NCBI GenBank assembly: GCA_008632985.1
Contig: QPGO01000001.1
Coordinates: forward strand, 62,001 to 126,000
DNA length: 64,000 nt
Direction of reading: 5' to 3'
DNA from: Psammoneis japonica
Taxonomy: Eukaryota
Shown here: piece after piece, positions 6,011 to 64,000 of the stretch
How the letters are laid out: each line of letters starts with the position of its first letter
Position numbering within the stretch: position 1 is the stretch's first letter
Notes under the pieces: generated by a model
The model's database searches: none
Told to the model about the DNA's origin: nothing
The model's input: only the letters and a program-made list of their open reading frames with translations
Made by a program: the position numbers and the translations under genes

Positions 6011-6199
6011 AAACAACTCACAGGCACGGTGGTGCGAGCGCAGCATGGTGCAGATGGATGCAACGAACGATTTGTTGCGATGCGATTTTTTTTGCATGTT
6101 CGAATGTTGTTTTGCGGTTGAAAAAAGGAAGAATGGCGACAAACTGTCTCCGTTGCGTTGAGTGGCAATGGATGGACATGTCTTGGTGTGGTTGGACGT

Positions 6200-27415: not shown

Positions 27416-28396
27416 TCACTTGTTGAGTTTCGCAAATCGTGCTTCCAATTCGGCATAGGATGAATTGACATTCGTTGTTCCACCGCCACCACCAGTACTA
27501 GCGCCGCCATTGTTATTACTACTCTCGTCGTCGTCGTTGTCATTCTTCTTGTCGCCATTGTCATTGTTTACGGGTGCCGAGGGAATGGTAGGTACAAAGA
27601 TGTCAACATCTCCAAAGTCATTATCATTGTCATTGTTACTCGTAGTAGTACTCGGAGCCGTGGGCGGGACAAAGACATCTGCCGAAGGAACCGTAGGAAT
27701 GTCCCCCTTGGGTGGTGGTTGATAGTTGATTTCTTGATCGACATTTTCTTGTCCCACAACAGCGGTTCCCAACAAGCCCGTTCCACCGGCTACTTGGACG
27801 CTATACCCCACTGGCGCCGCCATGGGTTGTGCCGGAGCACTGTCGGATTGAGACACGCGTGGTTTCCAATCCACTTCAAATAGCTTGCAAATCTTTTCCA
27901 AGTAAGTCTCCACCAAGGCTGCTGCGGGTGGTTGAACCGACAATTTGGAAACGACACGTTCATTCAACACTCCACCCACATTGTTCAAAGCCGCATCTTC
28001 AAAGTCTTTTCCGTATTTAGAACGAAATTGTTTCTTGATGAGAGGCAGCTCGGCAATATCGACATAATCACATGCCCAAATTAATGTCGATACACACGAT
28101 ACCAAATCGGGTGGACACGTTTTGGAATGTTCCAATAATTTGATGCGTTCCGCCAACAATTCACATTCGAGTTGCATAATTTCATATGCTTGAATGGCAT
28201 TATCTTCTCGAATCAGAGCTTCGGCACGAATTTTTGCCAATTCCTCCTTGGGCGGATCTTCGCTCAACATGACAGCAACCGCACGCATTTGTTGTTTGGC
28301 GACGGCCGTTTTTTTATTGGATGCAATTTGAAAACGACTCGAGGCCATTTTTAATTCTGTAGGAGTAGAGTATGAGAGAGAGAAGGAGTATGAGAG

Positions 28397-38634: not shown

Positions 38635-39049
38635 GCAGTGGTCACCTCCATTTTGTGGGAAAAAAACCGTTGAACAATTGGGTGGATGGATGTGTTTCAA
38701 TGATCATGTCTCTCCCTCAAACACCGTCATCCGAACAAACCCTCAGTGTCTTGCCCCCTTTTCACACACGAGGAATTTGGCTCTGCTGTTCGTTTTCTCC
38801 GACAACGCGATTTGAGAAAAAACCGTTAAATGTGTGCATTCACTGATGAGTTTAACGGCTGTTTTCCCAAATCGCGTCATCGGAGAAAACGAACAGCAGA
38901 GCCAAATTCCTCGCACATGAAAAGGGGGGCAAGACACTGAGGGTTTGTTTGGATGACAGTGTTTGAGGGAGAGATGTGATCATTGAAACACATTCATCCA
39001 CCAAATTATTTGACGGTTTTTTTCCCACAAAATTTGGGTGATCACTGCT
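38635..39049. repeat. Foldback inverted repeat (MITE-like), about 195-bp arms with about 20-bp spacer
   Basis: Arms align end to end; differences are mostly CA/TG/TA/CG swaps. Confidence 0.93.
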
Positions 39050-39779
39050 CATTGCGTTAAAAGATTCGTAACACAACGGATGATTTTCGGCGAAAACATT
39101 GCCGTCATTTGGATGTCACCTAAATGTGTCTTTCTGCGATGCCACTTGGCAGGTTTTCTACCTGCAAAAAAATCTCTGTGTGAATCTGCTGACGCACAAT
39201 CAGTGTTGAGTCTGCTGAGGAAGTTTGTGACACATGTCCCATGAGGATTTGAGTGCCCCTCAAAAAACCATTTAAATGTTCACACTCTAGAAGCCTGCAA
39301 AAGTCAATCCATCCAAGTGTTTTTGTTAAAATGCTGTGCACTAAAACACACATAAATTGCATTCAAAATCCGATTGTCTTTTGTGCATCACTGGAACACG
39401 TCATCTTCATCCCCATCACCAGAATTTTTGGTTGTTGCACACAAGAGCATCATGAGGCCTCCCGACCACTGGCATGATTGACGTTTGCATTTCAACCATG
39501 AAAGATGAGAAGCAGCAACTCTCAAGAGCACTGGTGGTGAGTTTTAGACACTGCAGAAACAAAGGGAATGGAGAGAGCAAAAACAATGTAGCAGCACACG
39601 CCTTGAGCACCGCAGATGGGATTGACATCGTCATTCTTTGAAAAGACCAATCAAAATGCTGCGAAGCATTCAGAACATTTGTCAGCTCAAGAATGTCAAT
39701 GTGAACAACTGCGTGTGACAAAATGATGGGAAAGCTCACATTCAGCCAACCTGATTGTTGCGTTCGACAGTGCGGTGAT

Positions 39780-40690
39780 TGCGAAGTCGCGTCGCTGTGC
39801 ATCCTGACCACTGGCATTTTTGATTGTTGCGTTTCAATGAGTTGAATTGTGCAGCATCTGAACTGCAGCAGAAAAGAGGAGAAATGGCAAGTCTCAGACA
39901 AAAAAGAAAGGAAACACAGAGAGAATCAAAATGACGTTGGCACATGCCTTCTGTCGCACAGTGGCACTGGCATGTGGCGGCATTCTGACCACTGGTGTTC
40001 CACCAGCATTTTGATTCTTACATTTTAATGTCTTGAATCACTCAGCATCTGAACCACAGAAGGCAAGAGCAAAAATGTTAAGTCTTGAACAACATGGCAC
40101 AAACCTGGAGTGTTGCACAGCGGCATCGGCGTGCACCGGCATCCCAACCAACAGCAGCACTCCACTGCCATTTTTTGTTCTTCCATTTCAATGTCTTGAA
40201 TTGATCATCACCTGAGCCAGCAGGCAAGAGGACGAACAGCAAGCCTCGGATGACAAGGGAAAAAGGGAGAATCAAAAATGCCGCACATGCCTTGAGTGTT
40301 GCACGGTGTGTGCTGGCATCCCGACCAATCATGCTCCACTGGCGTTTTTGATTCCTCCATTTCAACATTGTCTTGAATTGCTCTGCAACTGAGCTGCAGC
40401 AGGCAAGAGGAAAAGTGACAAATCTCAGACAACAAAGAAACAAAATGAAAAATCAACACAATGCCGCACATGCCTTGAGTGTTGCACGGCATGCACCGGC
40501 ATCCCAGCTGGTGGATTCCAACAGCATTTTTGATTCCTCCATTTCAATGTCTTGAATTGCTCAGCAACAGAACTGCAGCAGGCAAGAGGAACAATGACAA
40601 GTCTCAGACAACAAAGAAACAAAGCATGAGTCAACACAATGTCGCAAATGCTTGAGCATCTCACGGCATGCACCGGTGTCATGACCACTG
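39780..40690 (+). repeat. Degenerate tandem array, about 5 units of 165-190 bp; isolated copy near 42260
   Basis: TTGAATTGCTC..CAAC.GA.CTGCAGCAGGCAAGAGG at about 39842, 40032, 40195, 40372, 40551. Confidence 0.8.
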
Positions 40691-42968
40691 GGACTCCCAC
40701 TGCTCGAGTGTGGGTGGGCCCAAGCAATGCCAAAAACCATTGGCAGCTGTCACCATGTAATTTGGCAGTGTTTTGGTGCTCCACATGTGAGGCATTTATG
40801 TGGAAATTGCGTGTGTGCAAACATCAGGGGAAACGAGCGTGGAGAAGAGACGATGCGAGCAAAGCACGATTGCCGGAAAGAGATGCAATGAGAGCAATCC
40901 AATGACATTGCAAGGGTGCAAAAGAGAGAAAAGACCAGTTTGAGTTAGCACCATGTCTTCAATGAAAACGAACAAAGCAAGACAACATTGGCGTGCACAA
41001 AAACTTGCGCATGGAAGCACAGCACCAGTGCCTGAAAAATGACCACATCTGGGGTGACATGGAGCAACACAAGGAGGTGAGAACATGCTTTTCTACAAAT
41101 GCAAAGCAACAACAAGCAAACGACCAAAGCAAACTCACCAGCAGGGTCAAAACTTGGGGTGCCTGGATCGTCAATGGTGGGCAGGGAGGACAGATGGAAG
41201 AGAGGCAGTCTGGTGGTTCCACAGAGCAGGGTGACAAAAGCAGGTGGCAAATCGGCATGAGCAATGGTGGAAAGTCGGCACTTGGGATCAAGTGACTGTG
41301 GAGAACGGAGGCAGCGCCATGGTGGGATGGCATGGGCCGGGGAAAGAAGAAGTGCCATGGCGGAATGGCGTGGAATGGTGACGGAGCAAAAAATGGTGAT
41401 GGCAGTGGCGCAAACCCGGGACTTGGACATCCCTGTCTTTGAGTCATGTGCATCAAGATGCGGGTCAAGGAGGTTCAAGGTGAGTGCCATTGCGAACAAG
41501 AACGGAGAAAAAGACACACAATTCCACAAGAATCAGAGCTCAACACATTTTGAGTCATTCTGACCCATTCCAGAGCCAGGGCTCACTCACATGGCACGAC
41601 CCAATGGATTGTGACACTGTCAAGCAAGGCAGGGGTCGGAAGGCAGTGTTGCACCGGTCAAATCGGCCAAAAGCACCATTGTCGGAGGGAGCAGTGGGTT
41701 GTTGATCGGCCGCTCGGAAAAATTGTGAGCCATCAACTCGACCGCGCACCGTTTGGAGTCGCACAAAATTTCTCGGTGCAAAATGTGCACAAGTGTGCGT
41801 CAGCATAAAATTGTGCAGAAGGGTTGCAAGCAGAACCTCGCTGTCTCTCTGTAGACTGCAAGGATTCTGCCGTTGAACTGTGCCAGCATGAACAATTCTG
41901 CGTGGCCCATTTGAATCAATCCCACAAACGTTTTTAAACATTGATCCTGCTGACAGTTTCAGGTGCAAGATGAACACATGTGTGAGTTTCAATTGATTGT
42001 CATGTGCAATGTTGACAATTTTGAATGATTGCGCGACTGCCAGTCGGCATGAAAAACCGTTGCCAACAAGCAAACCTCAGCCCAACCAGAAGGCCACACG
42101 ACAAGCTGTGGGGTCGTTCTCGCCATTGTGCAACCCGCCTCGTCGGTCTCCACCTCATTGCTTGGACCCTTCTCGTCACTCATTGGGCTCCACAACAAGT
42201 GCACAGGGCGCGCACCTGCAGGGCTCCACTGGCATTGTTGATTGTTGCATTTTTAAAATTGGTTGAATTGCTCTGTGCCCAACTGCAGCAGGCAAGAGGC
42301 AAATGGCAAGTGTCAGGCAAAAAAGAAACAAAGGCAATGCAGCAGAGAAAATCAAAACAATGGTCTTGTTTTGCTGTCAACGGCATTTGCACAAAACCTG
42401 AAGTGCACGGTCGTGAACGTTGCGCAAGAGAAAAAAGAGGCATTCTCAGGAAATGCAGCAACACTGTGCGCAGAATGCACACACATGTCATTGCACTTGC
42501 ATGCCTTGCTTTGCTGCCGTCGCCATTTGTGTGGACTCCATTGTTGTTTTGCTGTCGTTGCTGTTCATTGTCAGCTCTTTCACTCATCCTGCGCTGAATT
42601 CTGCGCAGAGACAAAAACCAGGCGTGACACCCCGCGGTGCTTCACACCCGGGTTGTTTGTGCGGGTGTGACACCCCAGGTGTCGTCACATCCCATGAAAA
42701 AAGGGGGTGTGATGCCTGTTTCTGAATCCGGGCGTCACGCCCACCCGGGCGTGACACCCGTGCGAAATGCGCCCTCACTGAACGATTGCCAAATCTAGAC
42801 CGGGACTGGTGCGAGAGTCAGTCGTGCCTGCATCGCACTCCGCTGCCACGCTCAACGTGCCACATGCTCTCACAGCACACAGATGCAGCATTGCATCATT
42901 CCCGTTCGTGTTGTTGTCCTTGTTTCTTTGTTGTTCTTGTCTTTCAAAAGCAATGAAAAGAAGCAGAA

Positions 42969-45900
42969 ATGGCAAATGAAGCCGCTCCAAATGAGCTGAG
43001 AATCTGGCATGAGCTGCACGGCAAGCCAGCATCGGCGATGGCCCTGCTCATGCAGCGACCCCCCAAAACAAGGGTCACTGCCACTGCGCATGCAGTGACC
43101 CCCCAAAACGAGGGTCGCTGCAGCTGCGTTAAATTCCACGTGTTTGCACCAGGAAAATGTGCCTCCAACCCATCCAGCAGGCGTGAGCAACATTTTGTGC
43201 ACGAGAAAGAGTTCGTTGGGGCAGGCGAACAACATCACTCTACGATGCGACTGGTGCAAAATCCACGTAAATGCACAGATGCGCTCTGGAGCATGTGTGT
43301 GCAAATTCGAGCTCGCAAACAACAAGCAGGGATGATCGCTTCAAACGCCCTCATTGACGATTTCCGCAAGGCAATCATCTCGGAGAATCCTCCACTGCAA
43401 TTGCTTTCCCTGGGAACCATCAATGTCTGCAAGCCCGGGACGCCTGCTCCTGTTCCCGATGGAACTGAACGTGTCAACCCTTGTTGCAAAGTCGCTGATT
43501 TGGGTCGAAACACAGAGAGTGGTGCCTTGATTGCAGTTCCTCCTGCACTGCCTCCGACACAGCAGCAGCAGCAGCAGCAGCAGCGAGATGGCAAGTTGAG
43601 ATGTTGCTCTCGCGCTCAGTGTGCTTGCAGGTTGAACATCGATTTGAGCTGCATTCTCACCAGTGTCTCGCACAACTTGCACCAGCAAACCGGTCCTTGG
43701 TGTCTGCATGTGAGAGGTTTTTACCGCAGGATTGGGACGGACAAGCCCCAACCCTCAAACCCTTTCAACCAGCAGACGATGCCTTGTTCCACCACATTTT
43801 CAACGGGAGGGCACAGATTCCCTGCATCCCAAAATGTGACAAGCCCTCTCTTCTTCTTTTCGACCTGACAAACGAGGCACACAAAGAAACAGATGCCTGC
43901 AAGTGCATCAATGCAAGCAGGAAAAAGGGACCAAGCGCAGTTTGTGGCACATCTGGAGCGGGCAAGACGCAGCGTGGACTCGAGCATCTCTCCCAAAATT
44001 GTGGTTTCTACTTTGTTGTCAACAACAAAGACAATCCTGGCTCGGGTGATGTGAGGGGCTTGCTGCATGTCATCGAGGACAAGCTTGTTTGACATGATTC
44101 TGGTGCAGATCCAATTCGTCTGTCTGAAGACAATCTTGAGGTTGTGTTGAAGCACTTGAAAGTCTTGGTTGCTGCGCGGACAATGGTGTTTCATTGTCTC
44201 AAGAAAATCCGAGATCTGAGTTGCCACGAGTGGCTGCTCACTCAGCTTTTCCCCAAGGAATTCCTGGGGAAAGACGTTTTCAAGACTTTGATGATTGGTT
44301 GGTTGGAAAAGGACTTGCCAATTGATCTTCCCAAAGTGACAACAAACATGGCTTGTTTGGTTGACGAGGCTCAGACACTCAAGGACAAATTGCCTCATTT
44401 TTTCTTGTCGAGTGATGGAAAGTCCAAAAGATCTGCATGCAAGGCCTTTGTCCAGGGTTTCACGGGATTGTCCAAAGAAACACCCATCTTGGGTCATCCG
44501 GTGTTCAGTGGCACGGGCTTGTCTCTTCATGCATTGCAGAGCAAGACCAAGTCCGTGATGGCCAAACCACTTGTGCACGAGCCTGTCTTCACCAGCATGA
44601 AACCCCTGGGAGTGTCGGAAATTGCAGCTCATTTGCAACTTTTCTTGAACCTCAACGGCGTCGGGTTGGACCTGATTGAGCACATGGCAAAATGGTTGTG
44701 TGGTTGACCCAGGTGGGCTGCAACATTTTGGAGACATTTCTGCAGCACAAAAGCAGACAAGGGGGTCATGCCGCATCCTCTGGGACTTTCACGGAACACG
44801 AACGCCCAATCATTCAAGCTGTGGACCGTTGCATTGAAAGGGTTGCCACGGATGCGAACCAGTCCAACAGGAGGCTTTCGTGGACTTTGGGAGAAAGTTC
44901 GGCCTGCGCGGCTGTGAGCAAATTGCACACCCGTCGACTTGACAACAGCAACCAATGGTTGGTGATGAGTCAGCTCAAAGACGCAAGTTGTAAATTCGCT
45001 TTGTCCGGCAGTGCGATGACAGTGTGTGACACTGCCGCTTGCTTGACAGAGTGTGGCATTGTGTCAGTGGTGACTCGCATCGGTGATGAAGGTGATGAAC
45101 CAAGCGACCATGTTGACTGCAGGACAGATGAACCTCTGACAGTGCAATCGTGCATCAATTTTTTTGGAATCGACAAATTGCTTGAGGTTGAAATGGCACT
45201 GAAATGCAGAGAAAGTGAGAAAGGAAATGGCTTCGAACATTTTCTACTTCCTGCAATCCAAGGCAACTTTTCAAAGGTGATGAAAGAGCAGCTGGAAGAT
45301 GACATCGGTGACTTCGGTGACTGTTCTGTGCCAAAGCTGTCATCGCATGGTGTGCTTGCGCATGAATGCTCGGGCATCAACGAAACCCTGAATTGGCTCA
45401 GCAATTCAATGGATGCTCAACTCGAAGGCATCGTTGAACCATTTTGCTTTCCTGACAAGAGCATTGGCCCGGACTTGATGTTCTTCCTTAGAAATCTTGT
45501 CTGCAAAATGCGATTGTGTGTTGTGCAAGGAAAATTCAAGTGCAAAGTGAAAAATCAGGCAGGCACTCTTCGCACCATTGAACCCAAGCAATTTTATCAG
45601 GAATCGCGAAAATTGGGACGCAATTCTTCTCCTGCGTCTGTCATGACCAAAGCACAACATGAAACTTGGTCGACAATCCAAGAAACGTTGTTTAAAATGA
45701 AGAATGCCCCCGCTGAACAGATTGCACAGAATGGCAGACCCACGACACACGCCAACAAAAGCAAGACCAAGACGCGAGTGAAGCAAGAACGAAATGCTGA
45801 GGTTGCCTGGATGATGGTCCAATTTCCTGCGACTCGGACCATGTCAGCCCTGGTGCCGTTTGATGAAAAGAGCACTTGCGGCCTGCAATGCAAACGCCAC

Positions 45901-46020
45901 AAGCATGATGCTTTTTTGACAATTGATGGTGGATCTTTTGAAGCATGTCAAAAGCAGAAGTGGGGACAACGACGAGACCTGGAAGTGGTGACAGTTGCAG
46001 TCCTACAAGGTGCACTTTGA
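42969..46020 (+). pseudogene. Mutated Crinkler-like gene: ubiquitin-like header, P-loop NTPase, restriction-endonuclease-like domain
   Basis: Header IWHELHG...IDDFRKAIISENP; Walker A GTSGAGKT; GFYFV..NPGSGD; Walker B CLVDEAQ; FSGTGLS; KGNGFE; FPDKSIGPDLMFFL..VQGK. In-frame TGA at about 44090 and 44705, frameshift, Tyr replaced by Cys/His. Confidence 0.75.
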
Positions 46021-46529
46021 CAGCATGTCCTGCTGATCCATTGGCCACGCTGATTCGCCGTCCACTCCACAACATCATCACATCAGAAATCCCGAAGAGA
46101 GACATCTTGTGCTGGAGTGGCTTGTGATGCAGAATGATGTCGAAAGGTTTGGCAGAAGTGCCTTTTTCTGGTGGCCAAAACTTTGGTGCCACCAGGTTTC
46201 TCAGCTGGCTCCCCAGACTTTGCTCTGGTGCCAACACAACTGCAGAGTCCAGCAAACCACCCAAACTGTGCTCAACACATTGAGATTGTGCCTTGTGACA
46301 TGAAGAGTGTGCTCAAAAGAAAAAGCTGCAAACACTTTGTCACAAGTGACTTTTTTGCTGGCTGACACCTGGCCAATGTGCAGCTCTGCACTCACAGAGG
46401 CTGCTCTGCCACCACAACCAGGCTTCTTGCTTTGCACACTTCCCAGAGGTGGCTGCTTTGCCACCACAACTGCAGTTGAGCAAGCCACCCAAACTGTGCT
46501 CAACCCTTTGAGATGTTGGTCCTTTGGAC

Positions 46530-47364
46530 ACAAACAGTGTCCAGACAGAAAACGAGTCTGTTTGCAAACTCTGCTGGGGCAATGTCAGGCCAAAACAACA
46601 ACACAAGATGGTGAGCCAAGCCAACTGCCACTCTTGAAGTCCACCCCTGGGTCACATTGAGTTGTCTGGAGTCCTCTGCTGGCAACTGTTTGGTTTGTTT
46701 GTCATGCTTGAGGTGCCCATCCATTGTCCAGACAGAACTCAAGTCTGTCTGCAGACTGCTGGGGTGATGTTGGGCCAAAACCACAACACAAGATGAGTCA
46801 AGCCAACTGCCAATCTTGCAGTCCACCCCTGGGGTCACATTGAGTCATCTGGAGCCCTCTGCAAGCAACTGCTGTTTGGCTTGTTTGCCATGCTCGAGGC
46901 ATCCATCTGTTGTCCAGACAGAAAATGAGTCTGTCTGCAGACTGCTGGGGTGATGTTGGGCCAAAACCACAACACAAGACGAGCCAAGCCAACCACCACT
47001 CTTGAAGTCCACACCTGGGTCACATTGAGTTGTCTGAAGCCCTCTGCAAGCAACTGCTGTTTGGCTTGTTTGCCGTGCTTGAGGCATCCATCCTTTGTCC
47101 AGACAGAAAATGAGTCTGTCTGCTGCCAGCTTTGGGGAGGATTTTGATCCCGAACAATGACAGATGAGCCTTTCTGACCAAAATGAATGCTCTTAAAAAC
47201 CACCTCAGGGGCACAGTGAGAAGGCCAGAATCCTTGGTTGACAACTGCACAGTCAGTTTGTTGCACTTGAGGTGTCCATCCATTGTCCAAATGAAAAAAT
47301 CAAGTCTGTCTTGTGCTGGTCTTGGGCAATGTCAGGCCAAAACAACACCAGATGAACCAAGCCA
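46530..47364 (+). repeat. Tandem array, about 4.5 units of 186 bp, interrupted by nested insertions and resuming at 52892
   Basis: GTCCAGACAGAA at 46539, 46726, 46912, 47097, variant at 47285. Confidence 0.9.
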
Positions 47365-47785
47365 GGGAGTCGCCTCAAACACGTTGAAAGCATGGAGGTC
47401 ATCATCATGCGCGTGATGGCGCGCGTGTTGCAAGCGAATGCGTGAGCAATGAGCACGTCCGTTAAATTCACTTCATTTGTAGATGGACATCCTGCACAAA
47501 TTCTGCAGTTTGGCACTGCCCTCAGTCTTTACTGCTCATGTGCAAGTGCATTGGTCATCAGTGCACCTGTGTTTTCATGATCCAACGGACATCTCAAAAA
47601 CGTTGAAAGTTAACACGGTGAAAGTTAACACGTTGAAAGCTGTGTCTTTCAACGGATTTCCGTTGAAAGCTGTCTCGTTGAAAGTCAACACGTTGAAAGC
47701 TGTGACTTTCAACGGATTTCCGTTGAAAGTTAAAAAACGTTGAAAGTGCATCTTTCAACAGATTTCCGATTTCCGATGACATCAT

Positions 47786-48663
47786 CTACACGTCCCAAAG
47801 CGGCGAGCCAAATTCCAACTGGTGCTGCGCGATGACGCACACTGCCTCGAAGCAGCGGCGGTGTTTCTCGACGCCATGCCGAAACGTCCCGGAGAGGCAA
47901 GCGAAGTTTTTGATGCGGGCATTGAAAGCCTCTTGACGAGACCGAGCCCGGCTCTTGAACTTTTGTAGCTCAGGTGAGTCATGGGGGTTTGGTGTGCTGA
48001 TTTTTTTTCTCGCCTCGGCAACCGTCTTTCCTGCAGGCATTTTTTTAACAAGCTTCTCTCGGAACATCGCAAGGTCGTGCTTGGAGGCCTTGGCCGGCCC
48101 TCTCATCCATGCAAGCCGGTTCTCATAAATTGACAAAGCGAGTTCACATGTCAATCCGGCTTGATTGGTTTTGTGTGAGTGGCATTCCTTGTTTTTCCCA
48201 CACAGCAGGTGCTGGGGTTCGTTCACCCGGCAGTGGACGCCGTCCAAAGAAATGACAAAAATGGGTGAGTCACAAGCAGAATGCTTCCATTCTTCTGGCC
48301 AAACAACTTTCTGTTTCTTGAGTGCTCGCATCTTTTTAACACAAAACCAAACCCACTTCGTGCCGTGTTCTCACAGATTTTGAAAATGGCCGATCGGACT
48401 TCCTCCGTTTCACAGAGTTTCAAGAAATTGAGGGCCATCAGAAATGAGCCCAAGCAGACATCTTTAAGATCAACCCGGGCTTTTTCAATCTGAGTTGTTT
48501 GGAGGTCATGGAACACGTGTTTGCAAACTCTAGGAGAGGAGCCACGCAGCTTCTTGAATCGTCTGATGTTGCGATCTTTACAAGACTTTCTTTGGCGATG
48601 TAAGTTGATGCCATAGAGCATCAGACCCTTTTGGAGCAATGCAGCGGTCAAAACTTTGATCAT
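47786..48663 (-). pseudogene. Harbinger DDE transposase (DDE_Tnp_4-like), inactivated
   Basis: ISLDGVHCRVNEP, SHKTNQAGLTCELALSI, HDLAMFR, RARSRQEAFNARIKNF, FRHGVEKH; frameshift near 48350; the DxGY motif expected after GKTV appears deleted. Confidence 0.88.
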
Positions 48664-49044
48664 TGCACAGTCCAGCTCTCAGTGAGACATGAGATGCAAC
48701 AATCAAATTGTGGAGGTCTTGCTGTAGAGTCTTGTGGGATCGCGGCACTCGTGTGGTTTCTAAAACGTTCATGGGACCTAGCTCCAACTACATCAGCATG
48801 CACTGGGCACTCACATTGTCACAGCCTCCTGCGCATTGTGCTGCAAATGTGAGCTCAGTTCTCTACATGCACTGCTTGTGCTGTTTGCGCCCACCAGTGG
48901 TGTGTCAATTCAATCGACACCACTCGCTGCTCACGACACATGTCTTCACGATCGTGAGCACAATCTACGCTCGTCAGCAAGATTCACGCTTGCTCAGACT
49001 TCCAGTTCTTGCCAAACTAAAACACAGAGACAATGCCAAGCAAC

Positions 49045-49345
49045 ATGATCAGCAAAGGAGACATTGTAGACATCACCGGTGGGACCCATGGGGGCCAGTG
49101 GGGAAAAGTCAAGAAGATCACGCCAAAAAAGGTGAAGGTTTGTTTGCCCGACGAAGATGACGTCCACTGCATGTCTCAAAAGCATTGCAAGAAAGTGAAC
49201 CCGGAAGCAGAGATTGAAAAGTTGTGCCTCAAGCTGTTCCACATGGGTGTCAACGGCAGCGGCGTCAACCAACTTTCGTCTCACATGGTCGGGACGTTTA
49301 AAGCGCTCCAAAAGGATGGCGAGTCTAAGAGGGCCAGGACCAATT
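49045..49345 (+). pseudogene. Small KOW-motif ORF inside the Harbinger element
   Basis: KGDIVDITGGTHGGQWGKVKKITPKKVKV fits the KOW pattern; 3' end uncertain. Confidence 0.55.
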
Positions 49346-49409
49346 GCACAGGAGAGAGCATGCCTGTGGGATGGACTGCTTGCCAATTGATCCAATTGTT
49401 CCAAGTCCT

Positions 49410-50184
49410 TCAACTGCTGGCGTGTGGTGACATCTGCTGCTCAGTTCGCGTCTTCTCCTCCCGGCGTTTGCACCAAGCTGTGTGCTCATGTTTCTTTGCT
49501 TCTTGACAGATGTGCTTCCGAAAAACTTCAAGAGAGAAAACTTGATGCTCCTTTTGAGAAAGACGGAGCTCTTGGGGGGAGAGCACCTTGTGCCTTTTGT
49601 TGTCAATGTCCTTTTTTAAAGAAGCTTCCGCCTTGGATCCCTCCCAACGTGGTTCGCCGAGAGAGTTGAACAGTTTCTTGGGGAAGAGGTGCCTGTCGTG
49701 AGCCAGAGCCAGTTCTTCTGTGGCAGCTCGGTGTTGATCTTGGACAGCTTTTTCTCAACAACACTCGACACGTGCTTCAAAAAAATTAAAGCTGAACTCC
49801 ACAAACTCTGGACGTTGCCAGCAGACATCCTCGGCTGTCATGCTGCTTTCGTCAGTTGGCACTGCGCCTTTTCGTAGATCCTGCTTGAGCAGTTCTTTTG
49901 CCACACTTTTCCTCCAACAAGCCGATTCATCAATGACTTCTTCCTCCCACACAAATCCGTTGCTTCGTAGCCTCTCCAACAGTCAGCTTTCTTGCCGGAC
50001 ACCGCGAGTCCATGTTGCGCAAGAGATCTTTCAGCTCCGGAACTTTCATCTTTGTGACACCATCCAAATGAATTTCACCTTTAGAATTTTTGAGCTGTTG
50101 GATCTCGTCATGTCCCTTTCTTTTCTTTTTCTCCTGTTTTTTTTAGGACGCGTCGCCCTTTGTTTGGCAACTGCTGCAGCCCAT
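49410..50184 (-). pseudogene. Harbinger accessory ORF with SAP-like motif, broken
   Basis: KMKVPELKDLLRNM...ERLR (SAP-like); WRKSVAKELLKQDL...AEDVCWQRPEF; ALAHDRHLFP...GEPRWEGSKAE...VFRKHICQE across frameshifts. Confidence 0.55.
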
Positions 50185-50403
50185 GGTGAAACTCCCTTGC
50201 CACGCTCGGAGCTTCGCGTGATGACTCGTTTCCTGCGCTTTATTTTTCTGACTCGAAACACGACTCACTCAAGCAGCGATTGAATGCCAACCATAAGTTA
50301 AAGTTGAACGATCAGATTATGGTCATTCAAGTGCAGGAAAGAAATGAATTGGATTTGAAATTGTTTTCGAGCCGATTCGATTCATTTCGCTGGCACGTCG
50401 TCC

Positions 50404-51780
50404 ATGAACAAAGACAACATCGGCAACTGTCATCGCAGGAAACGCCGGTCGCATCAACAGCCTTGACGATCCAGCAGTCGAGGACTGCCAGAACACATTG
50501 ACAAAGCTCTCGTCCAACACATCGAGGAAGCAGGCGGAATCGGATTCGGAAATCTGAGCGGTCCCATCAGTGTTCGAAAGCTGTGCACAGGCAGAGAGGA
50601 TCTGCACGGAACACCTGGATCCGCACTGAGGGAGAAGGCATGCCAACGAGTCGCATTCCTTCATCAACTTTCTGAAGCCGAATGCTGCAGACACGTTGTG
50701 GACATTGGTGTTGAACAGTTGACAACAAGAAGAAGAAGCAGCATGTCATCATCGTCGTCTTCATCTGAATCAGAGGAATGGCCTCTAAAAACACCGCAAA
50801 TCATCGGCCTCAAGAAACACCGCCAACAGTCACGCAGCGCCAAATCAAAATCCTCGTCGGGATTTGCTCTCCACCCCGAAGAGCATCCAGTTCGACATCG
50901 CGGCGGAATCCATTGGTGTCGCCTCCTCCTCATTGTCACGACCCAAGAAAGGTGAGCATCATTGTTTGCATGTCCTCAAGAATTGTTTGCCCACACTCAC
51001 AATGTGTTTGCTTTGCTCGCCATTAAAGAAATTCCGGTGATCCCAGTCGACCTGGAAGACCCGACCAACCACGGGCCCCTCCGGAATGTTGTCGTTACTT
51101 TCTTTCCGAGGAAGGTCCTGAGAGTGATGGGAAAGTCCACAATGGTTTCGAGACAATGATCTGTGGTCATGCCAAGGATTGTGATGACCGCCCACATCTC
51201 GCTCAGGTGGTGTCCGACACCGACCTTCTCTTCACGACCCCGATGGCCCCTTACCCGTGCCGCGAGGAACATGAAAAATTCCATGCCAAAGCGGCAGAAA
51301 TGGGTGTGGCTTGTGACAGGACGAAGATGCCGCACACAAAGGCCACCCACAAGCTTCACGAAACACAAAAGGAACACGGTGTGCAACGCAATCATTTCAT
51401 TTTGCAATTCCCGCCGTCGGTCAAGCTCTCAAAGCACTGCTGTGCGGATGAGGATGGGATCATCAAACCCAAATGGGCGAGCAATTGTTGTGTGTCTTTT
51501 GCAATGGTGTGTCAGCCTCTCACCTGTTTCCTTGGTTCATTCGCACCAGGTGCCCTTCAAGGGCGATGCACCCACGATCAAGTCACACAAGGGCAAAGCT
51601 TTTGTCCATGTCACGGACTCCATCGTGTGGAATGTTGCTGTCCAAATGGGCGTTGATGGCGTCAAAGACTCCGTTGATGAAATCGACGAGCATCTGGCCA
51701 ACGCCGTGAAGAAAGGCGTGGCTCTCGATCAGTGGTCTGTTCAAGGTCTTTGCTGGTGCAGTAAATTAGACTTGTTCTAG
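50404..51780 (+). pseudogene. Fourth, apparently spliced, accessory ORF of the Harbinger element
   Basis: RGLPEHIDKALVQHIEEAGGIG...DLHGTPGSALREK, then EIPVIPVDLEDP..., ...ILQFPPSVKLS and ...IVWNVAV, separated by intron-like segments at about 50952-51028 and 51476-51549. Confidence 0.45.
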
Positions 51781-52891: not shown

Positions 52892-52994
52892 GCCAACCAC
52901 ATTGAGTGCTCTCAGCAAAGTCCACCCAAGGAGCACAGCAAAATGGCCAGAGCTCTCAGCTGACTAATGTTTTTTTTTCACACTTGGGGTGCTC

Positions 52995-53725
52995 TTCCAG
53001 TCTCACCCTTGGCGTGGTGTGAAGTGACATGGGGGCAACAACTGCACCAGAACAGCCTTGCAAAACTCAACCACAGTTCTTGAAGTGTTGCCTGGGGTCC
53101 ACCAAAGACCCCTGCACCCTCTGGATGTGGTTGTTGGGTTCTTGGTTGGTGCATTGATGGCATCCTTCCACTGCGGAGTTGGGGTTTCAAGTCTCACCCT
53201 TGGTGTGGTCAGAAGTGACACAGGGCCCCACAGCTTAGCCAGGGTGGCCTTGCAACTCTCAAAATCACAGCTCTCAAAGTGTCCCCTGGGGTCCGCCAAA
53301 TGCCCTCAATGCCCTCTGACTGCAGTTGTTGGATTGGTTGGTGCACTTGTCATGGTGTCCTTTCACTGTGGACTTGGGATTTCAAGTCTTGCCCTTGGCG
53401 AGGTGTGAAGTGGCATGGGGCCACAGCTGCGCCAGGGTGGCCCTTGCAGCTGTCAACCCACAGTTCTCAAAGTGTTGCCTGGGGTCCACCAAAGGCACCC
53501 AGGGCCCTCTGGCTGCAGTTGTTGGGTCAGTTGGTGCATTCATGGTGTCCTTTCACTGTGGAATTGGGGTTTCAAGTCTCACCCTCATTGTGGTGTAAAG
53601 TGACTGTGGCAACAACTGTGCAAGAGTGGCCTTGAAAGTCTCAACCACAGCTCTTGAAGCATGCCTGGGGTCCACCAAAGACCCCCAATGTGCTCTGGCT
53701 GCAGTTGTTGGGTTGGTTGGTGCAA
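52995..53725 (+). repeat. Tandem array, about 4 units of 186-194 bp, related to the 33.6-36.3 kb array
   Basis: CCTGGGGTCC at 53091, 53285, 53478, 53664; shares CTGCAGTTGTTGGGTTGGTTG, GTGTCCTTTCACT and TTCTCAAAGTGTT with the larger array. Confidence 0.88.
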
Positions 53726-54019
53726 TCAATCTGTGTGGAGTGACAGCTGCTGCGGCCATGACTTTCTCCACTCGCTCTCATCAACAGACATCTTTTGCTG
53801 CAAATTCCGCAGCAAATGGCGGCTCCTCTCTGTGGCAGCAAACAATGGAAACCACCATTCTGTGGCAGTCATCTAGAGCAAATGCACAGAACTCATCAGT
53901 CGTTTGGATTTGATGGTTTGACACATTTGACGCACTGGCACTCCTGGTGGAAAACTCAACACGACCCACAACAAAACAACCCCGATCCGCACCCTTCTCT
54001 GTGACCCCCTCTGCATTGT

Positions 54020-54330
54020 CATTCAAGCATGACACAGCCTTGATGTTTCCTGCACTCTGTCAAATTTGCACTCCAGGGTGTCTGGAAGAGAGTGTCAGGG
54101 CCAACTGTCAATGCTAAAAACTGAGTCTAGACGAGAACACTCACCTGCGTCAGAGTGGGAACAGTGCGAGGCACCCTCCCAGCAAGTGACATGTTGTCAT
54201 TTTCAAGCATGACAGACCCTTGACATTTCCTTCACTCTTTCAAATTCGCACTCTGGGGTGCATGAAAGAGAGTGTCAGAGCCAACCAACAACAGAAAAAC
54301 CAAAACTCAACGAGAACACTCACCCACTGC
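54020..54330 (+). repeat. Tandem duplication, period 180 bp
   Basis: TTCAAGCATGACA...GAGAGTGTCAG.GCCAAC...ACGAGAACACTCACC at 54022 and 54202. Confidence 0.8.
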
Positions 54331-54636
54331 GGTAAAAAAAAGGTTGTGTTCTGTTTTTTCCCAGCAACTCGGTCATTGTTTTACCCAAAATGCCTCACCC
54401 AGTTAATTGGTCCATCAAAAAATTCAGATCCAGCAAATTGTTCCAGGAAAAACGCAAGTTGCTTGGGAAAATCAACGGATCACTGGATCTTTCGCGTGCA
54501 GTGATGTTGTGTTGGATTTTTCAGTGGATTTTTTCAGCGAGGGCGTTGATTGGTGATTGGAATTGCAGGACTCAAAAAGTGGAGACAGACAGACTCACGG
54601 TTTTTTGACAAATTTTGGCAATAGCGAGAGATGCCG

Positions 54637-58164: not shown

Positions 58165-58584
58165 ACCTTCCCAATTCTCGCGTGACTCCTTGTAGAAGCC
58201 ACAGCTTCTCTGGTACAGCATGTATCGAAAAAAGAGGGTACCAGCGCAAGTGGTGTTCTCGTTCTCCTGCGACGATGACACGATGCGAGTGCCTGGAGTT
58301 GACGTCATCGTTGACACGAGAGTTCGGGTAACCTCATTGCTGCTCCTGCTCCCATAACATGCATGTACAGCATGAGTGTCAGTGTGAATCAACTCCATAG
58401 CAGTGGAGGTTTCGCTCTCGATGTAAGCGCTGTGAGTTATGCGTCGTCGTCATGGTGGGTGTCTTGTTTCTTGTTGTTGGCGCTGTTTTGTGTCGCCACT
58501 CGCCACAATCGGGATGGAGGTGGCAGGGACGGACGAAAGAAATCCGATGTATCGGATTTAGTTAGAGTGCTGTTGTTAGAGTGC

Positions 58585-61500
58585 TGTTGGTAACGGCTGG
58601 TGCTGAGCCAACCGTTGTGACGTGTTATCGGAGGGAAGCGTTGGATTTCCCTCCAATGGCGCTCACTTGTTACGAGTAGTTGTAACAGGCCTAAGAGCAT
58701 CGTTAGATCGTTAGATTTTTTCTCATTCATTGGGTGCATGACTTCCAACGCGTCAGTGAAAATCCTGCCATTGACGGTTTGGATCAGGCGCGTTTTCTCG
58801 ATGCGCTGTCTACTGCATTGTCGAGGGCCGACATTTGCAGCCAGATGAGGGATCAATCCGAGTCCATTGCTCGTGAGGCGTCCCCTGGACTCTTGGAGAG
58901 CGAAAAGGTCTGGGTAAAATGGAGCACCGCTTTCAAGAACATGCTCAGCACGATGCTGGGAGTCGACGGCGTTCCGTTGATTTGTGTCATGCGCGAGAAC
59001 GAGGAGCCCGAGCCTGAAGGGCATGAGACTTTTATGCAGAAGTCGGTTGCATGCGCTCCACTCGAGGGTCCAGCTTTCGAAGCTGATTCTCGCACCGTTG
59101 GCCAACTGATCGTTTCGTTCACGAAAGGCACCCCAAGCGAGCAGTGGATCAAAGAGCACCACAACAGCCAGAACGGTCGTCTCTGCTGCGAATCTTTGGA
59201 GAACCACTGTCAGGGCGAGGGCAATGCCACCCGTTGTATCTCAGAAGCTGAGCGTTTGGAAAACACTCTACATTGCAGGAGTGAACGCTCCATGACGTTC
59301 GAAATGTTCGTGAACAAGCTTCAGGAGATGTTCAACATTTTCGAAGAGAATGATGAACCCAAGACGGAGGCTCAGAAGCTGCGATTGCTGTTCGACAAGG
59401 TGCAACACCAGCAGTTGCAGAACGTGGTAGAGACCCTGAAGGTGCAGAATGAGTTCGGAGGAGGGACCAGTTTTGCTGCAGCGTGCAACCATCTTGCCGC
59501 TAAAGTCGCCACTCTCCCGGAAACAGTTGCGCACCGTCGTGCGATTTCCTCTGTTGCGTCCGGCGTCAGCAAGGAAGGTGATTCCATTTACAAAGAAGAT
59601 GGGTCCATTGACACCGGATTTCACAAAAATTGGCATCAATTGAGCAAGGAAGACAAGAAGAAGGTCATGGACGAGCGTGTGCATTTGGGACTCAAGAAGA
59701 GGCCGGGTAACCCGAAGTGCCGCGCTGCATCCGTCAGATCGCTTAAAAAGAAGAATCGGAAGCTGACGTCCCAGCTTGAGCAAGCGAACCGCACTGTTTC
59801 TTCCTTGGAGACCACTGCCGGCACCGATTCCGGAAAGGTTGGTGCAGGAACTGGCGGTCAAGGCGGCAACAATGCCGGAGACGCATTTGGGGGATGCCAG
59901 GAGCGTCAGCAACGCAGCTGACTCCTGAGCTGGACCCTGTTCTGTAGCCTCATCCAATTTGCATTGTGGCCACTTCATTGGGGCGGGGGCCAGCCGCATC
60001 GTTCGAAAGAAACGTTGGTTCATGGGGACTGTCGTTGCATTTGTGAAATTACTGCTTCCACACGACGAGTCTCTGCGGCACGGACTAACACGCGTGCCAC
60101 TCACGTCCAAACAGACGATCAGGTAAAGCATGGGCGACTAGAATTGGACTCACATGCTGACACTGCTGTTTTTGGTTCTAACTTTACCCTCTCAGGTTAC
60201 ACTGGCAGAGAATGCGACGCATCACCTTGTGACGAGGGATGCGAAGCTGTCAAGAGTGTCCCAATCGCATCGGCGGCCACTGCGTGGACCTCACCGGCGA
60301 CGGGAGCAACGCACATCCTGGTGTTCCATGAAGGACTTTGGATGGCAGATTCCATGGAGAATTCTCTCCTTGACCCGAATCAGATGAGGCATTTCGGTGT
60401 CACGGTTCAGGATGACCCCTGTTCCGAGTCGCCGTTGCATGTCCTTGCGGAGGACAAGGGATTCATGCTACCCCTTGAGTTGATGGGCACTGGCATCATT
60501 GCGGCAACTCGGACCCCCACTGAAAGGGAGCTCCAAGAGTGCCCACACATCCAGTTGACCTGCCAACAACCTTGGGATCCACACAACGTCAAGTTTAAGC
60601 AGTCCAGACCTTGACGTTCTGTGGAGGAGGAAATGGAGTTGATTCGGTCGGTCGCAACTGTTCGGTCAAGCCCTGGCTACGCGTTCAGTCAGGATCCTGA
60701 TTGTGGCAACCCTCAGACCGGGGACTGTTGTGACAGGAGACTCATCTGCGGTGTGGACCAAGTTCAATCAAGATTGACAGCGTCAGTCCAGGTGGAAGCG
60801 GATGTTCAGATCGCGGCCACTGAGACGATCGGCTCGGAACTCGAAGACGTGCCGTCCCCGAAGACTTTCATGTCCAAGGAACGGCACAGTTCTGTCACCG
60901 CTGTTGACTTGAGTGAGCGCTGGGGCATTGGATTGAAACAAGCGACATCAACATTGAAGAAGACCACCCAGAAGCTAGTGAGATCGGCGCTTGTGCCCCT
61001 GGCCAGGCGTTGTCGAGCGGATCGGATGTTCACGAAGCCGAAACTTCGAGGCGAGTGGGCGACTGATGCGGTCGACGGCAAAGTGGNNNNNNNNNNNNNN
61101 NNNNNNNNNNNNNNNNNNNNNNNNNNNNNNNNNNNNNNNNNNNNNNNNNNNNNNNNNNNNNNNNNNNNNNNNNNNNNNNNNNNNNNNNNNNNNNNNNNNN
61201 NNNNNNNNNNNNNNNNNNNNNNNNNNNNNNNNNNNNNNNNNNNNNNNNNNNNNNNNNNNNNNNNNNNNNNNNNNNNNNNNNNNNNNNNNNNNNNNNNNNN
61301 NNNNNNNNNNNNNNNNNNNNNNNNNNNNNNNNNNNNNNNNNNNNNNNNNNNNNNNNNNNNNNNNNNNNNNNNNNNNNNNNNNNNNNNNNNNNNNNNNNNN
61401 NNNNNNNNNNNNNNNNNNNNNNNNNNNNNNNNNNNNNNNNNNNNNNNNNNNNNNNNNNNNNNNNNNNNNNNNNNNNNNNNNNNNNNNNNNNNNNNNNNNN

Positions 61501-64000
61501 NNNNNNNNCTTGGCGAAACTGTTGACATCTCAGAGTGCCTTGACTTCGGATTCTACGATTGGGTTTGGCACAGGGAGAATGCTGGTCTTGGTGACCAGAA
61601 GCTCGGTAGGTGGCTCGGAGTGTCCCACCGGATTGGCAGTCTAATGTCATGTTACGTGTTGACGCAAACCGGTCGTGTCATGTCGCGAACATCTGTTCAG
61701 CGAGTCACCAACTTGGAAGCTGGCACGCAAGAGAATCAAGATCGTTTCAAGGCTTTTGACGAGGAGATCCAGCGCAGACTTCGTGACCAAGAGTTTCCCA
61801 AAGACGAAGAGCGCAGGATCAGCCCCGAAGACTGGAAGGACTGTCTTGGGTACGACGACGAATTCCTCGACGAGTGCGATCGCGTCATCAGTTCTGAAGA
61901 TGTGTCAAACAAGGACGACGACAAGAAAGACGAGGAAGCCTCCCCGGAAGCGGCGGATTGGGGTCATCTCAATGTGGAGTTGGCTTTGCCGAGAGATGAT
62001 GATGGTCCCGAGTTCGCGCGTGTGACGAAGAGGTTGAGGGATGCGAATGGCATTCCCATTGGGACAGCCAACGACAACCCAATCCTAGATGCTCGAATGT
62101 GTCAGGTGGAGCATCCCGATGGTCACACTGCAGCACTTTCAGCTAACTCTATTGCCATGAACATGTTCGCACAGATTGACGAGGACGGAAATCGGCATGT
62201 TCTGTTTGACGAGATTGCAGACTTCCGTGCGAATGGGGACGTCCCGGAATCCGATTTCTTTGAAACTGAGCAAGGCAACAAGAGGCGGCGCAGGACCACG
62301 AAAGGATGGGAACTCTTGTTCCAATGGAAGGACAGCAGCACTGCTTGGGTTGACCCAAAGGACGCGAAGGAAGGATTCCCTGTCCAGGTCGCCGAGTTCG
62401 CCATCCAACACAAGATCTCGAAGGAGCCGGCGTTTGCTTGGTGGGTTCCGCACTTAATGAGGACCCGCAAGCGTTCTATTGCGAAGGTCAAGTCAAAGCA
62501 TTGGTTGAGAACCCATGAATTTGGCACACGAATTCCCAAGACTGTGAAGGAGGCACTGGAGCTCGATCGTGCGAACGGCAACACCTTGTGGCATGACACC
62601 ATTTGCTTGGAAATGAAGAATGTTCGAGTTGCGTTCGACAAGTTCGAGGGGGACGAAACGGAGCTGCCTCCTGGGCACCAACAAATCGATTGTCACATGA
62701 TTTTTGACATCAAGTTGGGAGAGAACTTTTGGCGCAAGAGCAGGATGGTTGCGGGTGGTCACATGACCGACACCCCAACTGCCATTGCCTGCTCCTCAGT
62801 TGTTTCCAGGGATTCGGCAAGGATTGCCCTTGCACTTGCCGTGCTTGATGACTTGCAAGTCTTTGCCTGCAACATCCAGAATGCCTGCTTGACAGCGCCG
62901 TGCCGAGAGAAAATTTGGACTCGTGCCGGTGAAGAGTTTGGCGCGGAACGCGGTGAGATTGTGATTGTAGTCAGGGCACTCTACGGATTGAAGAGCTCCG
63001 GCGCGGCATTCAGGGCCTTCCTGGCGGAGACGCTTTGTGATCTAGGATGCAAGCCTGGCAAGGCTGATCCCGACGTTTGGATGAGGCCAGCAGTGAAGCC
63101 AGACGGATTCGAGTGCTACGACCACATCTTGGTGTACGTCGACGACTTGCTGTCGATTAGTCATGAGCCGATGAAGACTGTGGATGGTGTCAAGTCGAAG
63201 TTCAAGCTCAAAGACGATAAAGCAGCGGAACCCGAATCCCACTTGGGCGCCAAATTGTCGAAGATGGACCTTGCTGACGGCACCACCTGCTGGACGATGT
63301 CAGCAGAAGATTGCTGCAAGGCGGCGGTCCGGAATGTTGAGGACAAATTGGCCAAGGAAGGAAAACGGCTGCCGAGCAAAGCATGCACACCTTTAAGTGG
63401 CGGATGCAAGCCGGAGTTGGACACTTCGGGCGAACTGGATGCAGAAGGCCTCAACCACTGCCAAGAGCTGATTGGCGTTTTGATTTGGGCCGTGGAATTG
63501 GGTGGGGTCGATGTCATTTTGGAAGTGTCAAATGTGTCGGCTCACCTTGCCTTGCCGCGCATTGGTCACTTGGAACAGGCATTGCATGTCTGTGCATGCC
63601 TCAAACAGGTCCCAAAGCGCCGGGTGGCGTTCGATCCTACGCATCCGGTCATCGACGAGTCTAGGTTCAAGGAGTGCGATTGGTTTGACTTCTGCTGAGA
63701 CGCGCAAGAGGCGATTCCCCCCAACATGCCACCACCTCGAGGTGACGTTGTGTCTGCTCATTGTTTCGTGGATGCCAACCATGCTGGTGACGCATCAACT
63801 CGCCGCAGTCATGCAGGCATTCTGACATTCCTGTGCCGAGCACCCATCATCTGGTGTTCGAAGAGACAGAACACCATGGAGACCAGTGCTTTTGGCGCCG
63901 AGATCGTGGCACTCAAGGTCGTGGTGGAATTTATTGAAGGTCTGAGGTGCAAGCTTCGAATGTTTGGAGTTCCTGTTGAAGGTTCTACAAACGTGTTCTG
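58585..64000 (+). mobile_element. Ty1/copia (CoDi-like) LTR retrotransposon, 5'-deleted, hypermutated, runs off the window
   Basis: TG-starting LTR-like stub 58585-58720; gag 58721-59921; protease LELDSHADT; integrase WATDAVDG...LGRWLGVSHRIG; RT KSRMVAGGH, ALYGLKSSG, YVDDLL; RNase H FVDANHAG...SKRQNT.ETS.FGAE. Order PR-INT-RT-RH. In-frame TGA at 60612 and 63696; N gap 61087-61508. Confidence 0.96.

Follow-up and report, generated by a model that had tools for sequence, protein, structure and literature searches.

Introduction

A mutational process restricted to the dinucleotide TpA (thymine followed by adenine) has been described in the chlorarachniophyte alga Bigelowiella natans, in a preprint reporting that 231 of the 302 nuclear point mutations found in mutation-accumulation lines fell within two integrated viral regions (Mettrop et al., bioRxiv 10.64898/2026.01.13.699255). 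According to that text, all but one of the mutations in the viral regions were A>G or T>C changes, all were placed on TpA, and they arose at about 6e-7 per site and generation, a de novo rate raised about 1000-fold in these lines. The same source describes a long-term trace of the process, namely clustered TpA depletion accompanied by CpA and TpG enrichment that includes reverse-transcriptase and DDE-transposase open reading frames (ORFs), and its authors propose an ADAT2-like adenine deaminase. Our literature search found no report of TpA-specific erasure in diatoms, and this preprint was its only direct match. Here we have analysed 64,000 nucleotides from the diatom Psammoneis japonica (assembly GCA_008632985.1, contig QPGO01000001.1, positions 62,001 to 126,000 of the forward strand), hereafter the window, whose last kilobases carry a Ty1/copia-type retrotransposon. 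A preliminary description of the sequence had proposed that this element was caught midway through a process that erases Tyr codons while most CpG survives. We find that TpA has been erased over about half of the window, probably by a hypermutation of DNA that is locally targeted to mobile and repeated sequences.

Results

Conserved tyrosines of the copia element are replaced by Cys and His

The 3′ part of the window, from about 58.5 kb to its end, corresponds to the 5′ part of the copia retrotransposon, which lies on the + strand and comprises the following features:

58535..58720 (+): putative 5′ long terminal repeat (LTR) or leader and start of the repeated element; marked by a climb in contig depth and by loose ends at 58534 and 58717
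58734..59921 (+): gag-like ORF with 0.3% Tyr, taken from the ORF list; no Pfam match
59964..60614 (+): protease-region ORF that shares the frame of pol and is terminated by an in-frame TGA at 60612-60614; homologues align from 60342
60621..63698 (+): integrase and reverse-transcriptase ORF (RVT_2), ending at the TGA at 63696-63698; assigned by Pfam and homologue alignment
63699..64000 (+): RNase H region, where pol runs on in frame and leaves the window; within the unbroken tblastn segment 61512-63998

The gag-like, protease-region and pol ORFs share one frame, and from 59964 to the end of the window this frame is interrupted only by the TGA codons at 60612 and 63696. A gap of 422 undetermined bases (N, 61087-61508) within the ORF at 60621-63698 hides the integrase core, and the part behind the gap matches the Pfam domain RVT_2 (PF07727) with an E value of 7.6e-13. 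This part has 1617 homologues at E ≤0.001, with a top identity of 62%, the named ones belonging to the diatom Fragilaria crotonensis. By tblastn, pol is collinear with its homologues before and after the gap (60342-63998), and the single segment 61512-63998 indicates that the frame is unbroken, in agreement with what the preliminary description had read from the sequence. A scan of metagenomes found no close relative of the element (best identity 62%). The limits of the LTR are unproven, the 3′ LTR being outside the window. Two short direct repeats with TTAG inside are present in the putative LTR, and a perfect palindrome of 9+9 bases with a 2-base centre (58540-58559) is located exactly where the repeated copia part starts.

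The ORF at 60621-63698 has 1025 codons, 141 of which are masked by the gap. The 884 readable ones include 29 Cys, 23 His and 7 Tyr, the last being the number counted by hand in the preliminary description, and this Tyr content (0.8%) compares with a median of 3.7% (range 3.1-4.8%) in the 120 listed proteins among the 1617 homologues. To define conserved columns, the part behind the gap was aligned with the best 60 of these 120 homologues, and a column was considered a Tyr column when at least 80% of them carry Tyr. Results showed that the element keeps Tyr in 3 of 19 such columns and has Cys in 10, His in 4 and Phe in 2; in the classes of conserved columns defined by other residues, 69-95% of the columns are kept (a loss of 5-31%, class by class). 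The lost Tyr include four that every one of the 60 homologues carries, and the three that are kept include the catalytic Tyr of YVDD and that of ALYGLK. In front of the gap, the motif RRCRADR has Cys where 26 of 27 homologues have Tyr. Thus, the Cys and His that had been noticed at conserved positions do replace conserved Tyr.

Altogether, 59 of the 360 conserved columns are changed, 28 of them by a single transition. These 28 comprise 16 TA>TG, 7 TA>CA and 5 CpG-type changes, with none in any other context, so that other substitution classes are far from being as frequent as the 23 of TA type. The direction of change is therefore from TA to TG or CA, and it is restricted to TpA. TA-type changes extend across codon boundaries, where they produce M>V, K>E, T>A, N>D, R>G and I>V after a codon ending in T, and in NTA codons they produce L>P, I>T (ATA>ACA) and V>A (GTA>GCA). 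The V>A, I>T and T>A changes that the preliminary description had listed beside the Tyr losses are TA-type changes at conserved columns as well.

At the level of dinucleotides, the element has an observed/expected ratio (O/E) of 0.17 for TpA (44 TA) and of 0.90 for CpG (318 CG), CpG being as abundant as had been claimed. Enrichment of CpA (1.30) and TpG (1.33) is nearly equal, that is, both strands have been altered to about the same extent. In 80 related copia loci retrieved from metagenomes the TpA O/E is 0.49-0.90 (median 0.71), indicating that the depletion is not a trait of this copia clade. The element resembles the diatom Ty1/copia elements matched in F. crotonensis in its RVT_2 domain, its collinearity with homologues of 900-1270 residues and its multi-copy nature, and differs from such relatives in Tyr content (0.8% vs 3.1-4.8%) and TpA O/E (0.17 vs 0.49-0.90).

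Where both outcomes are visible, the replaced Tyr codons gave 12 Cys and 6 His, and the preceding base had no influence on this choice (4 Cys and 2 His after a pyrimidine, 8 and 4 after a purine). All 7 Tyr codons remaining in the ORF at 60621-63698 are TAC followed by G; G follows 7/7 surviving Tyr codons vs 1/18 Tyr-replacing codons (Fisher p = 1.7e-5). Two of the 7 stand in columns where homologues seldom carry Tyr. Over the whole element and both strands the protection of TACG was not significant (8/124 vs 18/460 for TACH, p = 0.22) and it is thus confined to in-frame Tyr. Survival of TACG may be due to a methylated CpG beside the A, to selection, or to both.

TpA is erased in six further blocks that include mobile and repeated DNA

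In the whole 64-kb window the TpA O/E is 0.29, and TGA (1334) is far more frequent than TAA (325) or TAG (229). Analysis in 500-bp steps revealed a bimodal distribution, with a TpA O/E of 0.4-0.9 in host genes and non-coding flanks (for example 26.0-27.4 and 52-53 kb) and of 0.00-0.3, mostly below 0.1, in six blocks; overall, erasure spans about half of the window. The blocks, without an assigned strand unless one is given, are:

3.0-9.3 kb (3016..9304): TpA-erased block with host-gene fragments of Ist1 (8633-8955) and FG-GAP (6158-6331 and 6602-6783)
16.7-18.0 kb (16655..17996): TpA-erased block with base-sharp edges
23.9-26.0 kb (23936..26040): non-autonomous DNA transposon with terminal inverted repeats (TIR) and TA target duplications, recognised by its arms and end sequences
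29.0-30.7 kb (29027..30653, -): older block erased of both TpA and CpG, with a copia pol remnant at 29208-29627
32.6-51.8 kb (32560..51761): 19-kb TpA-erased block with 187-201-bp satellites at 33.7-36.2 kb, arrays at 40.1-40.7 and 46.5-47.1 kb and a relic ORF at 44680-46017 (+)
53.0-54.3 kb (52966..54332): TpA-erased block with a 193-bp satellite akin to that of 33.6-36.3 kb

When pooled, the blocks (32 kb) have a TpA O/E of 0.08, a CpG O/E of 0.47 and the same value of 1.67 for CpA and TpG; the corresponding values for the remainder (26.5 kb) are 0.54, 1.03 and 1.23. Outside the blocks TpA are spaced by a median of 17 bases and at most 209, and inside them TpA-free runs reach 1190 bases and end within tens of bases. 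The edges of one block fall on the TIR ends and flanking TA duplications of the transposon at 23936-26040. Its 34-nt arms are 91% complementary, both ends read TA+AAACTCT, and its 2105 bp hold an internal 181-bp tandem array and 4 TpA; the arms themselves differ by TA/TG, GGTACGG on the left facing GGTGCGG (reverse complement) on the right. Terminal or inverted repeats were looked for in the block at 16.4-18.1 kb and not found.

The copia remnant at 28.9-30.9 kb, with a TpA O/E of 0.09, a CpG O/E of 0.20, no Tyr in 140 residues and Cys in 2 of 2 conserved Tyr positions, represents a later stage of the same process, as had been suggested. The relic at 44680-46017 derives from a family of about 800-residue proteins without a Pfam domain (106 cluster representatives at E ≤0.001, best 1.6e-52). 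Its nearest Atlas clusters are unnamed and mostly from Basidiomycota, lower-scoring ones bear Crinkler and DAP3, and it may be a mobile-element protein. A single one of the 446 residues of the relic is Tyr, compared with a median Tyr content of 3.2% in its homologues; taken alone it is a weak case, with 5 conserved Tyr columns (1 kept) and transitions divided into 4 TA-type, 5 CpG-type and 5 other.

Accordingly, erasure affects mobile elements of both classes (I and II) as well as satellites and a fragment captured from a host gene, and it is confined to blocks edged at element ends. Pfam gave nothing credible in the 58 block ORFs of at least 150 amino acids and in 100 of the 115 ORFs of 90-149 amino acids, the other 15, within satellite arrays, having been excluded from the scan; none of these 158 ORFs contained a viral domain, and the recognised targets are transposons and satellites. 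The blocks are nearly devoid of TAA and TAG, and ORFs of 90-450 codons overlap in several frames and on both strands. The window as a whole has 73 ORFs of at least 150 amino acids.

Five tandem arrays (24178-24670, 33765-36243, 40127-40676, 46538-47123 and 52995-53724) all lie within erased blocks, one of them inside the TIR transposon, and have nucleosome-sized periods of 179-201 bp. Only two of them, at 33.6-36.3 and 53.0-53.7 kb, are related to each other. An alignment of the satellites was tried as a polarity test and dropped, because many positions alternate between TG, CA and CG and an ancestral TA is there indistinguishable from CG.

Loss of TpA depends on flanking bases and precedes loss of CpG

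We calculated survival as the share of TpA among TA, TG, CA and CG for each pair of flanking bases, dividing the value in blocks by that outside. Survival was lowest for ATAT (0.000), GTAC (0.008), ATAG/CTAT (0.009) and ATAC/GTAT (0.011), intermediate for ATAA/TTAT (0.10), CTAC/GTAG (0.10) and GTAA/TTAC (0.13), and highest for CTAG (0.24), CTAA/TTAG (0.47) and TTAA (0.64). By the same measure CpG survival is flat (0.39-0.63), which indicates that the flank pattern is not a by-product of composition. When each tetranucleotide is regarded as two half-sites, one per strand, the effects are roughly additive in the order TAT > TAC >> TAG > TAA, and this dependence fits an activity on the A of 5′-TAY on a single strand. 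Since Tyr codons (TAY) are the target motif, Tyr is the residue that disappears.

Comparison of both dinucleotides along the blocks also shows the order of events. TpA is at or below 0.18 with CpG still at 0.8-1.16 at 5.5-6.5, 42.5-43.5, 47.5-48 and 50-51.5 kb and in the copia element, both are lost at 7-8.5, 34-36 and 46-47 kb, and no stretch within blocks has lost CpG and kept TpA. Hence TpA is lost before CpG, at a rate above that of CpG decay. The proposal that a specific process removes TpA faster than CpG decays and indels accumulate was therefore correct: low-TpA, high-CpG stretches exist and the reverse occurs in none of the blocks.

Host genes serve as controls

The host genes of the window (a helicase, two FG-GAP genes, an SNase gene, tripeptidyl-peptidase II and Ist1) have ORFs with 1.9-4.8% Tyr. 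The best named relatives of the window's Ist1 come from Grammatophora, Mayamaea, Seminavis, Attheya, Odontella and Nitzschia, with identities of at most 60%. This gene is intact, and the part of it that corresponds to the eroded fragment at 8633-8955, which derives from it, serves as a polarity control:

27765..28162 (-): part of the intact host Ist1

In the fragment, 12 of the 12 TpA of the parent are lost (5 to TG, 4 to CA, 2 to TT and 1 to TC), together with 16 of 21 CpG, and 8 of 24 CpA and 9 of 32 TpG are changed. Transitions from A/T to G/C outside TpA (16) are about as many as those from G/C to A/T outside CpG (12), a balance that argues against a general drift towards GC.

The two FG-GAP genes at 9275-12130 (+) and 55312-58038 (-) are inverted paralogues, 44 kb apart, with 83% identity over their last ~1.2 kb. 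Over 1203 bp we counted 80 transversions between them, along with 37 transitions of CpG type, 18 of TA type and 68 others, in both directions. This spectrum is ordinary, and no leakage of TpA erasure into these duplicated host genes was seen. A 206-bp tandem duplication at 57782-58162 (1.9 copies, 93% matches) covers the point where the second FG-GAP ORF starts; the copia element begins a few hundred bases away. Lowered TpA (0.16-0.25) occurs in or beside host genes at 19001-19500, 55501-56000 and 57501-58000, and these stretches represent either small inserted fragments or chance.

Family copies probably share the tyrosine loss and continue to lose TpA

We compared positions 58400-64000 with Logan contigs from one sequencing run. 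A total of 860 contig pieces matched, 214 of them at 99% identity or more, so the copia family is multi-copy. Differences between copies occur at 449 places, and the best-supported 40 of them were classified; the counts below refer to these 40. The 18 Tyr-replacing codons contain none of the best-supported 40 of the 449 differences, suggesting that the recent ancestor of the family was probably Tyr-poor already; most of the Tyr loss would then be common to the family copies and older than their present spread. The preceding base leaves the choice between Cys and His open, and the same outcome in near-identical copies consequently means common descent rather than convergence.

In contrast to the Tyr codons, remaining TpA do vary. 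At six places (58812, 59708, 60051, 61607, 62477 and 63933) the window has TA and other copies have TG or CA, and the reverse (TG or CA in the window, TA elsewhere) was found at none. When CpG-type and double changes are set aside, 11 transitions are left; 6 of them lie at TpA bases, although these make up 2.2% of the stretch (binomial p = 5e-8), implying that erosion is continuing in individual copies. Three adjacent double differences, TG in one copy and CA in the other, fit independent changes at one ancestral TpA or CpG. At both TGA stops the other copies have CGA (depth 697/744 and 258/258), as expected from the earlier suggestion that these stops derive from CGA; the stops therefore reflect private CpG decay in the window copy, which is seen at six more places.

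Taken together, TpA erosion started before the last spread of the family and is still ongoing in single copies. The view of an individual copy caught midway is thus not supported as it stood: the Tyr loss is probably shared by the family, and it is the remaining TpA that are still eroding (6 places vs 0). The preliminary description held that Cys and His at the same positions throughout the family would speak against a mutational origin. The family probably does carry them, and the mutational process nevertheless stands, the host-gene fragment, the DNA transposon and the satellites being equally erased. Erasure is a property of the mobile DNA of this genome as a whole and not of one copy.

Discussion

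The explanation that we favour, with a probability of roughly 0.7, is a locally targeted TpA>TpG/CpA hypermutation that acts at the DNA level on mobile and repeated DNA of this diatom. A level of action in DNA rather than RNA follows from the erasure of the TIR element, satellites and gene fragment, and from the equal enrichment of CpA and TpG in the copia element. In the mechanism that we envisage, adenine in DNA would be deaminated to hypoxanthine and copied as G, giving A>G on either strand; the enzyme would prefer 5′-TAY, and it might be directed to its targets by a silenced or foreign state of the DNA. As for the copia family, an ancestor would have lost most of its Tyr codons, the family would have spread, its copies would keep losing TpA, and the copy in the window would then have acquired its two private CpG>TpG stops.

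The same targeted transition could start from thymine instead of adenine, for example if a TET/JBP-type enzyme oxidised it to 5-hydroxymethyluracil, which would then be wrongly copied or repaired to give C. TpA is self-complementary, so T>C on one strand and A>G on the opposite one leave indistinguishable sequences, and the hydroxymethyluracil of dinoflagellates is reported to prefer TpA and TpC. Nevertheless, we know of no thymine-modifying system in diatoms, and the mostly clean transitions (9 of the 12 lost TpA in the Ist1 fragment) fit deamination better than a route through a glycosylase and abasic sites, so we regard this version as unlikely. Selection in place of mutation is a little harder still to sustain. 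TpA or UpA might be avoided to evade a host nuclease or sensor, or the family might simply be poor in Tyr and TpA; the open reading frame and the sharing of most losses by the copies would agree with this, and the presence of the YVDD and ALYGLK Tyr among the 3 of 19 kept does imply that selection acted during the loss. However, the most thoroughly erased sequences are CpG-less dead relics, satellites and a host-gene fragment, which lie beyond the reach of such selection, neither the 80 related loci nor the 120 listed homologues are poor in TpA or Tyr, respectively, and four Tyr invariant in all 60 aligned homologues are among those lost.

Editing of retrotransposon transcripts, by which an ADAR- or ADAT-like enzyme would convert A to I after U and reverse transcription would fix the change, accounts for the apparent sharing of most Tyr losses among copies, as if they had occurred before integration, and for the excess of visible TA>TG (16) over TA>CA (7). 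Enzymes of this type do prefer A after T, according to the text of the B. natans preprint (bioRxiv 10.64898/2026.01.13.699255). Even so, erasure is just as complete in a cut-and-paste TIR element, in satellites and in a gene fragment, T>C on the sense strand is frequent (His codons, V>A, I>T, L>P), CpA and TpG are enriched equally, and the 16:7 ratio depends largely on which of the changes affect a residue, being 12 Cys to 6 His where both are visible; RNA editing is accordingly a very unlikely source of the pattern. Least probable of all, and close to negligible, are ordinary ageing, a general AT>GC bias, GC-biased gene conversion among repeats and an artefact of sequencing or assembly. It is true that the older blocks have also lost CpG and are 20-30% diverged, and that the window belongs to a scaffold with a gap within the element. 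Against ageing or bias stand the balanced transitions of the Ist1 fragment outside TpA and CpG (16 vs 12), the absence of any transition outside TpA or CpG among the 28 at conserved copia columns, and the ordinary spectrum of the host paralogues. An artefact would neither spare YVDD nor track element ends, and 214 of the 860 contig pieces match at 99% or more, though the run may be the assembly's own data.

Several points weigh against targeted hypermutation as we propose it. What we have is a pattern in sequences, in which an enzyme, a base modification or a de novo event is not seen. If the contig run is the source of the assembly, as it may be, the comparison of copies is not independent of technical artefact, and it made visible only 40 of the 449 differences. 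Spread of the family after loss of 16 of the 19 conserved Tyr is awkward if these changes disable pol, and would require that the family was mobilised in trans, that the changes were tolerated or that copies arose by segmental duplication. Retention of TpA in the putative LTR or leader (12 in 186 bp vs 44 in the 4858 bp of the element body) may be explained by selection or by absent targeting, with flank context accounting for part of it, as 6 of the 12 lie in the refractory YTAR. The flank rule comes from a comparison of compartments and not from polarised events, and the survivors in blocks may include re-created TpA. Finally, sharp edges would be equally expected if the elements had been TpA-poor before insertion; the gene fragment, the TA differences between copies and the lack of new TpA in satellites that have diverged by 20-30% argue for continued action in place.

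If our explanation is true, the window holds a saturated trace in a diatom, and mutagenic A>G defence is no peculiarity of one alga; TpA hypermutation would act on ordinary transposons and satellites, beyond integrated viruses. The order TAT > TAC >> TAG > TAA and the TACG survivors provide a concrete specificity by which candidate deaminases can be judged. For annotation there is a risk, as erased blocks yield spurious long ORFs and predicted "proteins" that are poor in Tyr and rich in Cys and His. In addition, TpA O/E delimits mobile DNA near base level and, combined with CpG O/E, ranks insertions by age. A wider scenario is tempting and in our opinion doubtful: a diatom defence by DNA editing that finds mobile DNA to within tens of bases, deaminates the adenine of 5′-TAY on either strand and outpaces the decay of 5-methylcytosine, with copia elements co-evolving by shedding dispensable Tyr and keeping those of YVDD and ALYGLK as TAC followed by G. 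Together with B. natans, it might then represent an old and widespread immune layer of the stramenopile-alveolate-rhizarian (SAR) group and a clock for transposons.

Among the known systems, repeat-induced point mutation (RIP) of ascomycete fungi resembles the diatom case in acting on DNA, in producing one class of transition in a dinucleotide context, in its sharp limits and in its choice of mobile and repeated sequences. The outcome is the opposite, since RIP turns CpA into TpA and the diatom blocks have TpA destroyed. RIP is triggered by duplication; in the diatom, the host paralogues (83% identity over 1.2 kb) keep an ordinary spectrum. Diatoms possess DNMT4, a relative of fungal RID with no known function (PMC9998398), but a cytosine methyltransferase would not account for A>G, and RIP is no fit. 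Animal APOBEC3 and ADAR likewise hypermutate retroelements by deamination with a preference for neighbouring bases, which for ADAR is a U before the edited A. They act on cDNA or double-stranded RNA and on retroelements only, whereas the diatom window also shows a DNA transposon, satellites and a gene fragment erased, on both strands; to our knowledge, ADARs are confined to animals.

B. natans remains the closest parallel. In both organisms A>G and T>C transitions are restricted to TpA, depletion is localised and non-host DNA alone is affected, as judged, for the diatom, from this window. The hosts belong to different lineages, B. natans to the Rhizaria and P. japonica to the Stramenopiles, and the targets differ, being giant-virus and virophage inserts in the former and copia, a TIR element, satellites and gene fragments in the latter. 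Erasure is near-complete in the diatom blocks (O/E 0.00-0.1) compared with 0.45 in the nucleocytoplasmic large DNA virus (NCLDV) region of B. natans, and the diatom window adds the 5′-TAY flank rule and the order relative to CpG decay, neither of which is mentioned in the portion of the preprint text available. The diatom case is thus a second example of a kind of TpA hypermutation that has been described once, in a preprint, in another lineage.

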